64,000 bases of DNA from Candidatus Riflebacteria bacterium HGW-Riflebacteria-1 (GCA_002839445.1 PGYB01000001.1:282735-346734), one strand, 5' to 3'; positions 5,533-16,149 are shown, counted from the stretch's first letter. Notes: generated from the letters alone by a model not told the origin. Numbers and translations: made by a program.

Positions 5533-5591
5533 CTGTGCTTTAGTTTTTCTGCAAGCGAATAGCAAGTCGCTGCAGGCAAGTTTAACGAGCT

Positions 5592-5627
5592 GCCGCCCCA
5601 AAGCTGTTGGGGCGGTTTATTTTTTTG
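5592..5627 (+). terminator. Rho-independent terminator after flgH
   Basis: CCGCCCC-9 nt loop-GGGGCGG stem (5593-5615) followed by TTTATTTTTTT. Confidence 0.55.
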
Positions 5628-5648
5628 CAGCAAATTATGCACAATACA

Positions 5649-5679
5649 TTGAACATGCATGGCAAAATCTGCTATAAAT
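5649..5679 (+). promoter_or_regulatory. putative sigma-70 promoter for the carbamoyltransferase cassette
   Basis: TTGAAC (5649-5654), 18-nt spacer, TATAAA(T) (5673-5679). The -10 is embedded in the perfect 14-bp palindrome CTATAAATTTATAG (5672-5685), a possible operator. Confidence 0.3.
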
Positions 5680-5706
5680 TTATAGTCACGCAAAGGAATC
5701 TCCTGT

Positions 5707-7536
5707 TTGTATATTCTTGGCATTTCAGCTTACTACCACGACTCCGCCGCATGCCTCGTGCATAACGGCAGTATAGTTGCGGCTGCTCAGGAAGAGCGTT
5801 TCACCCGAATTAAACATGACAGCAGGTTTCCTTTGCACGCGGTCAGCTATTGCCTTGAGCATGCCGGCATAACCATGCAGCAGGTAGACAGCCTGGTTTT
5901 TTACGAGAAGCCATTTATAAAGTTTGAACGCCTGCTTAAGACCTACCTGAGCTTCGCTCCGGCCGGCTTGACCTCATTTTTTCACGCAATGCCAATGTGG
6001 ATCAAGGACAAGCTGTTCATGAAGTCCGAGATCGCGCACCTTATCAAAGAACATTTTGCCCAACTGCCCAAAGAAATCTTTTTCTACAAACATCACCGCT
6101 CACACGCGGCTTCGGCTTTTTTTCCATCGCCGTATCAGAAAGCTGCAGTGCTCTGCCTTGACGGTGTTGGTGAATGGGCAACAACTACCGCGTGGCAGGG
6201 CTCTGGCAATCAGCTCGACCAGCTGTGGGAGATCAGGTTTCCGCACTCACTCGGTCTTCTGTATTCGGCCTTTACGGTTTATACCGGCTTTAAGGTCAAC
6301 AGCGGCGAATATAAACTGATGGGGCTCGCGCCCTATGGCAAGCCGGTTTACCGGCAACTGATTCTTGACAATCTCGTTGATGTAAAAGCAGATGGCACCT
6401 TTCGCCTTAATATGGATTATTTTGATTACTGCACCGGCCTGAACATGTTCAACGATAGCTTCTGCCGGCTTTTTGGCGGACCAGCAAAAAAAGCTGAAGC
6501 GCAGACTAGCGAACGCGAGATGAATCTGGCCAGGTCAATACAGGATGTCTGCGAAGAAATCGTGCTAAAACTCGGCACCAGCCTGCACTCCGAGACCGGC
6601 CTCGACAATCTGTGCATGGCCGGCGGCGTTGCGTTAAACTGCGTCGCCAATGGGCGCCTGCTGCGGGAAGGTCCGTTCAAGTCGATCTGGATCCAGCCGG
6701 CGGCTGGCGATGCCGGCGGAGCGGCTGGAGCCGCACTGGGTGTCTGGTTCGAACACGGCAAAAACCCGCGCCAGCCTTCGACGCCAGATATGATGCAGGG
6801 TTGCTATCTTGGGCCAGCGTTCAGCAACAGCCAGATCAAAGCTTTTCTAGACCAGCACGCTATTCCGTATGCGCAGATAGACGATCAGGCACTTTTTGAA
6901 ACAATCGCCGACGATCTCAAAAGCGAAAGAGTCATCGGCTGGTTTTCAGGTCGTATGGAATACGGTCCACGCGCACTTGGCGCGCGCAGCATTATCGGTG
7001 ACGCGCGTTCTACAAAAATGCAGACGACAATGAATCTTAAAATCAAATTCCGTGAATCTTTCAGGCCGTTCGCGCCATCGGTGCTTCGCAAAAGGCTTTC
7101 CGACTATTTTGATCTCAACTCTGACACACCATACATGCTGTTGACCGCGCAGGTAAAAAGGGAGCGCATGATCGAAACAAGCGATGAACAAAAATCATTC
7201 ACCGGCTTAAAGCTGCTCAACGTCGCACGTTCAGAGATTCCGGCCATTACTCATGTTGATGGTTCAGCGCGAATTCAGTCTGTGCACCCCGAAACAAACC
7301 CTCGCTATCACGCAATGATCGAAGCGTTTGAGAAAATAACCGGCTGCGCCGTTATAGTTAACACATCTTTTAACGTGCGTGGCGAGCCAATTGTGTGCAC
7401 CCCGCTGGATGCCTACAAATGCTTCATGCGCACTGAAATGGACAATCTTGTTCTCGAAAATTTTTATCTGAAAAAAGAAGATCAGCCTCGTGAAATCATT
7501 GAAAAACTGGGACTTGAAGCCTTTGCACCAGACTGA
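5707..7536 (+). CDS. NodU/CmcH-family carbamoyltransferase
   Basis: 609 aa. N-terminal MYILGISAYYHDSAACLV..QEERFTRIKHD (ASKHA-like) and a C-terminal carbamoyltransferase region. TTG start with an AAAGGAAT RBS. Confidence 0.85.
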   Translation: MYILGISAYYHDSAACLVHNGSIVAAAQEERFTRIKHDSRFPLHAVSYCLEHAGITMQQVDSLVFYEKPFIKFERLLKTYLSFAPAGLTSFFHAMPMWIKDKLFMKSEIAHLIKEHFAQLPKEIFFYKHHRSHAASAFFPSPYQKAAVLCLDGVGEWATTTAWQGSGNQLDQLWEIRFPHSLGLLYSAFTVYTGFKVNSGEYKLMGLAPYGKPVYRQLILDNLVDVKADGTFRLNMDYFDYCTGLNMFNDSFCRLFGGPAKKAEAQTSEREMNLARSIQDVCEEIVLKLGTSLHSETGLDNLCMAGGVALNCVANGRLLREGPFKSIWIQPAAGDAGGAAGAALGVWFEHGKNPRQPSTPDMMQGCYLGPAFSNSQIKAFLDQHAIPYAQIDDQALFETIADDLKSERVIGWFSGRMEYGPRALGARSIIGDARSTKMQTTMNLKIKFRESFRPFAPSVLRKRLSDYFDLNSDTPYMLLTAQVKRERMIETSDEQKSFTGLKLLNVARSEIPAITHVDGSARIQSVHPETNPRYHAMIEAFEKITGCAVIVNTSFNVRGEPIVCTPLDAYKCFMRTEMDNLVLENFYLKKEDQPREIIEKLGLEAFAPD

Positions 7537-14557: not shown

Positions 14558-14631
14558 GTATCCACTCCTTTACCTCTGCCAAGAAGTCAGTTACGTGACG
14601 TTCAGAAAGCAGGGAATGCCATAAAAACTAC

Positions 14632-15909
14632 TTACCAGCTGCCCCCACCGAGCCCAGGCTGCCTTGATGCTTCTGGCAACGGTTCCTCGTCGGAACGGTC
14701 ATTACCGAGGGGGCCGAAGAGGGCGTCAGTAGCGCTGTCAATGCCGCTATTAACAACTCCAGTAGCCTGCGTTTTCGACGGAGCCAACTGATTACCGACT
14801 CCTCTTGAGAGTAAGCTCTTAACTGCCTGCGTCGCAAAATCACCGTCGGCTATTTCATCAAAGGCGCCACCGCCCATCTCCTTGACGATTCCACCAGTAA
14901 TTTTTTTCGTGCCGTATTTAATTGCCTCACTGGCAGCAGCCTTGGCAGTATTTTTACCGATGACGACAGCATATTCTCTGTCACTGGTAATACCTTTCTC
15001 TCCTGCCTCAATTAAAGAATTTCCGGCGCCAATGAGAACGACAGAAGCAATACCGACCGCCTTGCCGGCTATATCACAGACGCCGGAGATAGAGGAAATT
15101 ATCCCAGCAGCGGGAGCAGCAACAACAGTAGCAGCGCAGGCGGCAGCTATGACCTTCAGAGTCAGAGAAACCACGCCTAAAATAGCTCCGGTCTTGCTCA
15201 TGACCTCACCGGTTGAAACAAGCTTTTGTCCGGCGCCGATGAGTGCATCCTGGTAGATACGAAGAGCATTGGCTCCCGCATCCATAGTGCCATGAACCTG
15301 GGATGGATCAGTCTTGGCGGCCGCTTCAAAATCGCCTTTCTTAAGCAGATCCATGGTTTTTTGAGCATCGGCCTTAATTTGCTTGATTTGCTCGTTGGCT
15401 TCGTCAATCTCGTCGCCATATTTCTTGAAATCTTCTTCTTCTTTTTGCTTCTTTTCGGCCTCGAGTTCAAGTTTTCTGGCCTCAGCTTCCTTTGCCCTTT
15501 GCTTGTTCTCGTGCTCTCGCAGTCTCTCTTGAAGGTCAAAGGCACCGCCGGTAAGCTTGTCGGCACCCCATGCCAGAACACCAGCTACAGGAGCAACCGC
15601 ATTATCTCTGATCCATCTGGCAGCATCCTCAGCGGCACGGCGCGCCGCCTTGGCACCCGCCTCAGCTTCCTTCCAGGCGACTCTGGCCGCATCAATCGTG
15701 TCAATCACTATGCTCGCAGTCGTTTCGAGCTCACACTCCTTGATTGCCATAATATCGTCGTAGGTCTTCTGGTAGTCGGCAACAGCCTTTTCGATCTGAG
15801 CTTTCTGATTTGGGGCCTCAGCCCTGGCCATTGCCAGGGGGGCAAAAGGTTGCAACAGCAATGCAAATACAATCAGAACAGAAAAAAACTTGCGCATATG
15901 CCTGCTCAT
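14632..15909 (-). CDS. secreted coiled-coil protein with Gly/Ala-rich hydrophobic helical hairpin
   Basis: Signal peptide (FSVLIVFALLLQPFAPLAMA), charged KE-rich coiled-coil, then ILGVVSLTLKVIAAACAATVVAAPAAGIISSISGVCDIAGKAVGIASVVLIGAG. First gene of the minus-strand operon. Confidence 0.5.
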   Translation of the reverse strand: MSRHMRKFFSVLIVFALLLQPFAPLAMARAEAPNQKAQIEKAVADYQKTYDDIMAIKECELETTASIVIDTIDAARVAWKEAEAGAKAARRAAEDAARWIRDNAVAPVAGVLAWGADKLTGGAFDLQERLREHENKQRAKEAEARKLELEAEKKQKEEEDFKKYGDEIDEANEQIKQIKADAQKTMDLLKKGDFEAAAKTDPSQVHGTMDAGANALRIYQDALIGAGQKLVSTGEVMSKTGAILGVVSLTLKVIAAACAATVVAAPAAGIISSISGVCDIAGKAVGIASVVLIGAGNSLIEAGEKGITSDREYAVVIGKNTAKAAASEAIKYGTKKITGGIVKEMGGGAFDEIADGDFATQAVKSLLSRGVGNQLAPSKTQATGVVNSGIDSATDALFGPLGNDRSDEEPLPEASRQPGLGGGSW

Positions 15910-16072
15910 AAGTAAACCTCCATCTCTTTTATCTCCTGCTAATCTCTATACTCTAATTCTGACAAAAAGTTTTGCTAATTACAATCTTTATTGAAGTAAT
16001 TTTGTACACAAATTTGCCGACCGTTTTTCGGATAACAGCAACACGAAATTAATGACGAGCTGGTGAAAGGTC

Positions 16073-16100
16073 TAAGTAATTGCCGGCAAAATGCCGATAC
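16073..16100 (+). promoter_or_regulatory. putative sigma-28 (FliA)-type promoter upstream of flgI
   Basis: TAAGTAAT ... GCCGATAC (16093-16100) resembles the TAAA-N15-GCCGATAA consensus. Spacing is 12-16 nt depending on register. Confidence 0.3.
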
Positions 16101-16149
16101 AATTACTGGAGCCTGAATACCGGGCAATAAAAAGACAGGAAGAAGGCGC

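Follow-up and report, generated by a model that had tools for sequence, protein, structure and literature searches.

Two nested insertions of different age probably separate flgH from flgI in a Candidatus Riflebacteria flagellar locus

The flagellar ring genes flgH and flgI of Candidatus Riflebacteria bacterium HGW-Riflebacteria-1 lie 10.6 kb apart in the 64,000-nucleotide stretch analyzed here (GCA_002839445.1, PGYB01000001.1:282735-346734; the whole stretch is called the window). They are separated by a four-gene carbamoyltransferase cassette on the plus strand, followed by a five-gene pilin-like operon on the minus strand. We consider it likely that two nested, independent insertions of different age at one operon boundary gave rise to this gap. 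To judge from gene order in relatives, adjacent flgH and flgI are the ancestral state, and the interruption appears to be ancestral for the family-level clade of the window. The initial annotation of this stretch had described the four plus-strand cassette genes, which Pfam and homology searches bear out, and had proposed that an insertion split the rod/ring operon. Ancestral adjacency and inserted DNA agree with that proposal, but two events of different age are needed rather than one. The junction contains the following features.

4927-5532 (+), flgH, Pfam FlgH, E 9e-50
5592-5627 (+), predicted intrinsic terminator closing the flgFGAH unit, stem 5592-5616, T run to 5627
5649-5678 (+), putative sigma-70-like promoter of the cassette, TTGAAC-18-TATAAA, read from the sequence
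5707-7536 (+), O-carbamoyltransferase of the NodU/CmcH/SxtI family, TTG start
7490-7951 (+), SxtJ-family small membrane protein, Pfam PF19588, 8.7e-17
7966-8145 (+), DUF5989 (SxtK-like) membrane protein of 59 residues
8284-10656 (+), GDSL/SGNH hydrolase with TPR repeats, fourth cassette gene, Pfam Lipase_GDSL_2 and multiple TPR families
10702-11394 (-), pil1, prepilin-type minor pilin with a GFTLVE N-terminus, Pfam N_methyl 1.1e-5
11391-11915 (-), pil2, prepilin-type, MRSGFSFVEIV; open reading frame (ORF) extends to 12008
11929-12471 (-), pil3, small protein with one N-terminal transmembrane helix, without a prepilin motif
12383-14473 (-), pil4, ComZ-like large minor pilin of 696 residues; ORF extends to 14557
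14632-15909 (-), pil5, secreted protein of 425 residues with a signal peptide, first gene of the minus-strand operon
16072-16100 (+), sigma-28-type promoter motif of flgI, CTAAGTAA-N12-GCCGATAC
16150-17262 (+), flgI, Pfam, E 2e-104

Gene order in the window was obtained by mechanical ORF calling and Pfam scans. For comparison, a scan by FlgI alignment, limited to one genome per species, gave 56 loci, about 45 from Riflebacteria and 9 from outgroups (loci are cited by L number). Twenty window proteins were placed on all of them by tblastn, and cargo states were read against a neighbor-joining tree of FlgI and Rho. The FlgI of the window is 92 to 53% identical to proteins from metagenome-assembled genomes (MAGs) of Candidatus Riflebacteria/Ozemobacteraceae. 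In the literature searched, no paper on flagellar gene order in Riflebacteria was found.

The flgH-flgI junction in relatives

In the outgroups, flgH is located 5′ of flgI in 9 of 9 loci, at a distance of 7 to 223 bp in eight and of 1.35 kb in L052, in agreement with the earlier statement that the two genes are usually neighbors elsewhere. It also lies directly 5′ of flgI in nine Riflebacteria loci. In the deepest of the phylum (L041, L043, L048, and L049), only 25 to 82 bp separate the flgH stop from the flgI start, and this gap contains neither a terminator nor a sigma-28-like motif at a plausible distance. The adjacency in both outgroups and deep Riflebacteria indicates that the operon was split by inserted DNA.

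Three occupied states of the junction were found. The cassette alone, in the same orientation, fills the space from flgH to flgI in nine fully visible lineages with FlgI identities of 62 to 80% (L003, L010, L017, L022, L029, L059, L038, L039, and L044); the pilin operon alone is present in L001; and both modules are present in the window, L006, and L008/L068. Candidatus Rifleibacterium amylolyticum, with a FlgI identity of 87%, has a layout from aroC to flgI that is identical to that of the window. In L001 the cassette genes are gone, but the flgH terminator and the cassette promoter/leader remain (TTGAAA-18-AATAAA; flanks alignable to window 5620-5700), a relic which indicates that the cassette was deleted in this lineage. 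The cargo-free loci L032/L036/L037, in which a 197-bp gap holds a terminator and then the flgI promoter, are sister to the cassette-bearing L039/L042/L044 in the FlgI and Rho tree.

The point of entry of the pilin operon can be placed by alignment. When the regions upstream of flgI from cassette-only, pilin-only, and double-cargo loci are compared, homology starts exactly at the −35 element CTAA and extends over the −10 element and the strongly conserved leader. This start suggests that the pilin operon was inserted between the cassette stop codon and a flgI promoter that already existed.

Other arrangements are also found at this site. L025 and L027 contain the cassette and then a MacB/FtsX-type ABC transporter before flgI, a third cargo type at the junction; in L027 the transporter (5419-9876) comprises two permeases, an ATPase, and a protein of 430 residues. 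NADH-dehydrogenase-type genes replace flgFGAH 5′ of the cassette in L013 and L014, the pilQ secretin gene is directly 5′ of flgI in L040, and in several further lineages both flgH and the cassette are absent within 10 kb of flgI. The two independent assemblies of L005 (FlgI 93%) and L067 (92%) are broken at one common position next to pil1, and the 300 bp there are without a match in the window, L001, L003, or L006. The break region of L067 is 1-345; at 2169-4155 in L005, a scaffold gap is followed by frameshifted pieces of an IS66-family transposase, which suggests a repeated insertion sequence (IS) element at the junction in this lineage.

Flagellar units and their promoters

The two flagellar halves and the start of the window contain the following further features.

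2-196 (+), 3′ end (last 65 codons) of a PilQ-type secretin gene
291-1541 (-), aroC
1597-1624 (+), sigma-28-type promoter motif of the DUF501-flgF-flgG-flgA-flgH unit, CTAACCTTTGGCAGAAATTCTGCCGATA
1648-2211 (+), DUF501 gene, first of the flgF unit; the orthologue of relatives is annotated PF04417
2157-3047 (+), flgF, Pfam Flg_bb_rod/Flg_bbr_C
3082-3870 (+), flgG, Pfam Flg_bb_rod/Flg_bbr_C
3882-4946 (+), flgA, Pfam ChapFlgA
17390-18238 (+), TPR protein of 282 residues, Pfam
18242-18550 (+), FlgJ, rod-binding domain only, Pfam
about 18489-19904 (+), rho, Pfam
19909-20580 (+), M23 peptidase, Pfam

The contiguity of flgF-flgG-flgA-flgH (2157-5532) and the terminator after flgH, both of which had been reported in the initial annotation, were confirmed, the former by Pfam. 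The terminator has a 10-bp stem with seven G-C pairs and ranks second among the terminator-like sites in 1.5-19 kb; a comparable hairpin with a T run is conserved 3′ of flgH in L001, L003, L010, L017, L032, L036, L037, and L039. DUF501 was recovered across loci at 40 to 77% tblastn identity, and the order flgI-TPR-flgJ-rho-M23, in which rho sits between the rod-binding-only flgJ and the M23 peptidase gene after flgI and the TPR gene, is kept across most Riflebacteria loci (L001-L049). The TPR protein weakly resembles FlcA, the spirochaete collar protein, at a level below the threshold.

The textbook sigma-28 (FliA) promoter has a −35 element TAAA and a −10 element GCCGATAA about 15 nt apart. 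Read against this consensus, the flgI motif is TAAG-N16-GCCGATAC (16073-16100), with a spacer that is 1 nt longer and is shared by the relatives, and it ends about 50 bp 5′ of the flgI ATG. The composite CTAA-N14-17-GYCGATA occurs three times in the window (0.10 expected; 0 of 100 shuffles reached three), and all three sites are just 5′ of genes in the correct orientation, two of them at the flagellar units. About 40 Riflebacteria loci, which represent every cargo state, keep the flgI motif between −39 and −73; that of the flgF unit is kept before DUF501 in seven crown relatives (L001, L003, L010, L017, L022, L029, and L059) at −40 to −54, or −116 in L022. The elements thus agree with the consensus and their position at motility genes is above chance and conserved, so that there is good comparative evidence for two predicted sigma-28-type promoters, including the one of its own that had been proposed for flgI. 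No fliA was found within the 64-kb window, to which the search was confined, and the sigma factor encoded at 36029-37087 contains region 1.2 and is unlike FliA. The third sigma-28-like motif (40196-40223, minus strand) precedes an ORF at 39095-40144 (-) for an Ig/fn3-like protein of 349 residues, which is followed by accD, accA, and a sigma-70-family gene.

Because the flgI promoter is conserved both in cassette-only lineages and in the cargo-free L032/L036/L037, we suggest that it is older than the pilin insertion. The earlier idea that the split required a new promoter for flgI agrees with the terminator and separate promoter of the split lineages, but the promoter was not created by the pilin insertion.

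The leader between this promoter and flgI (16100-16149) is nearly invariant across relatives (TACTGGAGCCTGATTT ... CAGGAAGA-N-ATG) and carries two GGA motifs, one of them within the Shine-Dalgarno sequence. It could be a site of post-transcriptional control of the CsrA type.

The carbamoyltransferase cassette

The cassette begins with a carbamoyltransferase that matches Carbam_trans_N (1.4e-108) and Carbam_trans_C (2.2e-71), followed by PF19588 and PF19451 proteins in the order of the SxtI/J/K type. The assignment of the 59-residue DUF5989 ORF is based on its 65% identity to a 58-residue protein of L003 that is annotated PF19451. The true start of the SxtJ ORF is probably downstream of 7490, the proteins of relatives having about 131 residues. 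The putative cassette promoter has a counterpart in L003, L010, and L017 (TTGAAA-18-TACACT). A sigma-54 reading of the conserved motif 5′ of the carbamoyltransferase gene was rejected, the GG-to-GC spacing being 8 nt and not 10; the motif fits −35 and −10 elements of the sigma-70 type with an 18-nt spacer. Just 5′ of the −35 element, a conserved stretch at 5620-5650 (TTTGCAGCAAATTATGCAC in the window, TTGCA..AATATGCAC at the same site in L003, L010, and L017) may be a regulator-binding site.

The cassette appears to be old and vertically inherited, having co-diverged with FlgI. Carbamoyltransferase identities between pairs of loci follow those of FlgI (Mantel r = 0.94; 0 of 2,000 permutations), and in the crown clade the branching order of the carbamoyltransferase tree equals that of the FlgI and Rho tree. 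The carbamoyltransferase of the window is 85 to 87% identical to those of L006 and L008.

Related gene sets are also found away from flagellar genes. In L064, from the same deep Riflebacteria MAG as L048, in which flgH and flgI are adjacent, carbamoyltransferase, SxtJ, and DUF5989 genes are part of a glycosyltransferase/methyltransferase cluster. L065 (same MAG as L046) contains the complete four-gene cassette in a non-flagellar context beside a DDE transposase fragment, and in L066, from a Thermodesulfobacteriota MAG, genes for a carbamoyltransferase, a GDSL protein, SxtJ, and DUF5989 belong to a polysaccharide locus with a flippase. These occurrences in polysaccharide clusters and beside a transposase fragment suggest that the cassette is a portable glycan-modification module, and we infer from the glycosyltransferase and flippase genes around its homologues that its substrate would be a surface glycan.

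The pilin-like operon

The minus-strand operon is best described as a putative minor-pilin/tip-complex set. All five genes of the pseudopilin operon in the initial annotation are present, but the canonical prepilin N-terminus is not general: the class III signal (G|F-x-x-x-E followed by a hydrophobic helix) is found in pil1 and pil2 and not in pil3 or pil5, and the N-terminus of pil4, G-F-I-L-F, lacks Glu5 and is GspK-like. Four of the five proteins gave no Pfam, NCBIfam, or PDB profile match; pil2 and pil5, in particular, matched no family in profile searches, and pil1 has a weak N-terminal match to GspJ under the family cutoff. The fold of an N-terminal helix on an antiparallel sheet was found, and in pil4 an N-terminal pilin helix and sheet is joined to a beta-solenoid. 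The pil4 family comprises 66 proteins, whose identities range from 100 to 34%, and every member with a source name is from Riflebacteria/Ozemobacteraceae, although most members carry no source name.

At the flgH-flgI site, the five-gene module was found only in the window, L006, L008/L068, L009, L001, L005, and L067. It is also present in unrelated contexts in L061, L062, and L063, and the module is apparently multi-copy in some Riflebacteria. In L063 (10001-16751), from the MAG that gave L015, two copies lie tail to tail, far from flgI. The simplest reading is that the module arose inside the phylum, by relocation or as a paralogous copy.

The first gene of the operon, pil5, looks replaced or fast-evolving. 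Its product is 81% identical in L006 and L008 and only 36 to 37% identical in L001 and L005, where it has 368 residues, whereas its neighbors are 54 to 78% identical; the codon usage of pil5 is the most deviant for its size.

The module would lie within about 10 kb of pilus machinery, since the window starts in a PilQ-type secretin gene and the synteny of this region is conserved. The secretin end at 2-196 has 92% tblastn identity to the last 65 residues of the secretin of Candidatus Rifleibacterium amylolyticum; an ORF at 54-383 was rejected as the secretin, which is in another frame. Genes for pilMNOP and the secretin were found upstream of aroC in an 87%-identical relative (L068 1-4515), the synteny pilMNOP-secretin-aroC is kept in L020, L032, L033, L037, and L043, and a pilMNOPQ cluster is accordingly predicted just 5′ of the window start. 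In many Riflebacteria, pilMNOP-secretin-aroC adjoins the flgF unit.

A stepwise explanation and its alternatives

We suggest the following course of events. Before the first step, flgH and flgI would have been adjacent and co-transcribed. In this old step, the four-gene glycan-modification cassette would have entered between them and then passed by vertical descent through much of the phylum, with several deletions. In the ancestor of the genus-level clade of the window, which includes Candidatus Rifleibacterium amylolyticum, the five-gene minor-pilin module would then have been added in the opposite orientation, between the cassette stop codon and the −35 element of flgI. Four insulated transcription units are now predicted: DUF501-flgFGAH, with a sigma-28-type promoter and a strong terminator; the cassette, with its own sigma-70-like promoter; the pilin operon, divergent from flgI; and flgI-TPR-flgJ-rho-M23, with the second sigma-28-type promoter. 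As both flagellar halves have the same type of promoter, their co-regulation would persist despite the split. The cargo would be a passenger outside the flagellum proper, and the gap between terminator and promoter a permissive landing site that lineages fill, empty, or rearrange.

Several points weigh against this explanation. The neighbor-joining trees are based on two proteins from MAG fragments, and the numbers of gains and losses are not firmly resolved. The promoters, the terminator, and the operon structure are predictions from sequence. The assemblies of the closest relatives, L005 and L067, break at a repeat by pil1, which hides the state of the cassette there, and no repeats, integrase, or tRNA gene were found to explain either insertion. 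The cassette has stayed in precisely this place for a long time, which could point to a function and not to neutral persistence. Finally, carbamoyltransferases from other phyla, at 64 to 67% identity, intermingle with those of the Ozemobacter clade and are equally close to that of the window.

This last point is also what favors independent capture, according to which the cassette was acquired at the flgH/flgI site in at least two Riflebacteria lineages, the boundary is a true integration hotspot, and the cargo-free L032/L036/L037 and L033/L047 never had the cassette. In the midpoint-rooted neighbor-joining tree, the Ozemobacter-clade enzymes form no clade with those of the crown, and the family is too conserved across phyla for this tree to separate one acquisition from two. 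The other changes at the boundary, namely the ABC transporter of L025/L027, the pilin operon, the IS66 fragment of L005, and the rearrangements of L013/L014 and L040, together with the four-gene copy beside a transposase fragment in L065, would also be expected of a hotspot. However, the lineages with the cassette all agree in gene order, orientation, and position, monophyly fits the unrooted carbamoyltransferase tree, cassette protein identity drops smoothly with FlgI identity, and the deletion demonstrated in L001 shows that loss is easy. We therefore regard repeated capture as unlikely.

The cassette might instead be functionally tied to the flagellum and retained between the L-ring and P-ring genes for that reason, for example because it carbamoylates or de-acylates an envelope glycan or peptidoglycan at the rings or modifies a flagellar glycan. 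Its position and orientation are kept through lineages of 62 to 88% FlgI identity, its last gene ends immediately before the flgI promoter in cassette-only relatives, and the downstream flagellar unit is rich in envelope-remodeling genes (FlgJ rod-binding, M23, amidase). However, the cassette would be driven by a sigma-70-like promoter of its own and shielded from flgH by the strong terminator, and it was lost at least three times with the flagellar genes retained (L001, L032/L036/L037, and L033/L047). The same genes occur in polysaccharide clusters far from flagellar genes, both in a deep Riflebacteria lineage and in another phylum, and the pilin operon is wedged between cassette and flgI with no apparent harm. 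A tie of this kind seems to us quite improbable. We give similarly little credence to a broader proposal in which the flgH/flgI boundary would be a long-lived, selectively maintained docking site for envelope modules, the cassette would modify an envelope polymer at the L- and P-rings, and the ComZ-like pilus-tip module would have been recruited beside flgI and close to pilMNOPQ, for coordination of flagellum, pilus, and glycan modification from a single locus.

Composition gives no sign of recent arrival. In guanine-plus-cytosine (GC) content, tetranucleotide distance, dinucleotide abundance, and codon usage, both modules fall inside the range that the rest of the window covers. In tetranucleotide distance, the pilin operon takes rank 86 of 119; the cassette ranks 16 of 119 in this measure and 8 of 119 in dinucleotide relative abundance (about 1.8 standard deviations above the window mean), and pil5 is the one gene that deviates mildly. 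The window contains no tRNA or tmRNA gene, none of the three borders has direct or inverted repeats of 9 bp or more, the cargo encodes no integrase or transposase, and the IS66 fragment was seen only in the relative L005; the features of a genomic island or mobile element are thus not found in the window. The most deviant region of the window is elsewhere, at 53000-61000 (tetranucleotide distance up to 0.26 versus a mean of 0.15; GC 0.55-0.56), and covers an M16-like peptidase gene and a LuxC/AMP-binding fusion.

It is highly improbable that the operon of this genome was split by one recent, horizontally acquired island of 10.6 kb. The neighboring position of the two genes in outgroups, the non-flagellar nature of the cargo, and the terminator and separate promoter that flank it would agree with such an event, but the two modules are found separately in relatives, Candidatus Rifleibacterium amylolyticum shares the full layout, the carbamoyltransferase co-diverges with FlgI, and the cargo has neither deviant composition and codon usage nor flanking repeats, tRNA, integrase, or transposase. 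An interruption that is ancestral and shared with close relatives, with no compositional signature, is also what the initial annotation had named as speaking against its own proposal of an insertion; by that measure, a recent insertion is refuted. Two nested insertions remain the likely origin of the gap.

Comparison with known systems

The genes of the two flagellar units are those of the flgFGAHI(J) operons, such as flgB-J of Salmonella and E. coli, in the order flgF-flgG-flgA-flgH ... flgI-(flgJ). In contrast to these operons, flgH and flgI of the window are 10.6 kb apart in separate predicted transcription units, the promoter motifs of both units are of the sigma-28 and not the class 2 type, FlgJ consists of the rod-binding domain only, and rho and the M23 peptidase gene are inside the flgI unit.

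The first three cassette genes represent the same three Pfam families, in the same order, as the saxitoxin trio sxtI-sxtJ-sxtK and its homologues, and the association of an SGNH/GDSL hydrolase with the carbamoyltransferase trio is common to the Thermodesulfobacteriota polysaccharide locus. Unlike the saxitoxin cluster, the window contains no toxin pathway, and the fourth gene is a long SGNH and TPR fusion; the site between flagellar ring genes is specific to Riflebacteria.

The pilin operon was compared with pilA1-pilA2-pilA3-comZ of Thermus thermophilus, fimU-pilVWXY1E of Pseudomonas, and gspHIJK of type II secretion. It differs from all of them in having no sequence-level family membership, and pil3 and pil5 are without prepilin motifs; the family is so far known from Riflebacteria only, and its function is a predicted one. 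A homologue of a further window protein occurs near this module elsewhere: a giant ORF of 1,878 residues at 46672-52308 (+), which has no Pfam match, has a 42%-identical counterpart about 7.7 kb away from the module on a contig of Ozemobacteraceae (L062 1-2283).

As in genomic islands, a conserved operon is broken up by unrelated cargo and relatives differ in what the locus contains, whereas the window is without the tRNA gene, integrase, transposase, flanking repeats, and compositional deviation of such islands.

Significance

The locus documents what would be the stepwise dismantling of a conserved flagellar operon in an uncultivated phylum, with later deletions leaving promoter relics. The comparison yields sigma-28-type promoter predictions for two Riflebacteria flagellar units and a Riflebacteria-specific five-gene module, putatively of the pilus tip, for whose large ComZ-like subunit curated libraries offer no relative at the sequence level. 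We regard it as a clear, well-sampled case of a familiar process, in which an operon boundary collects cargo. The understanding of flagella and of operon evolution is unchanged by it, and its value is descriptive, for the annotation of Riflebacteria genomes.

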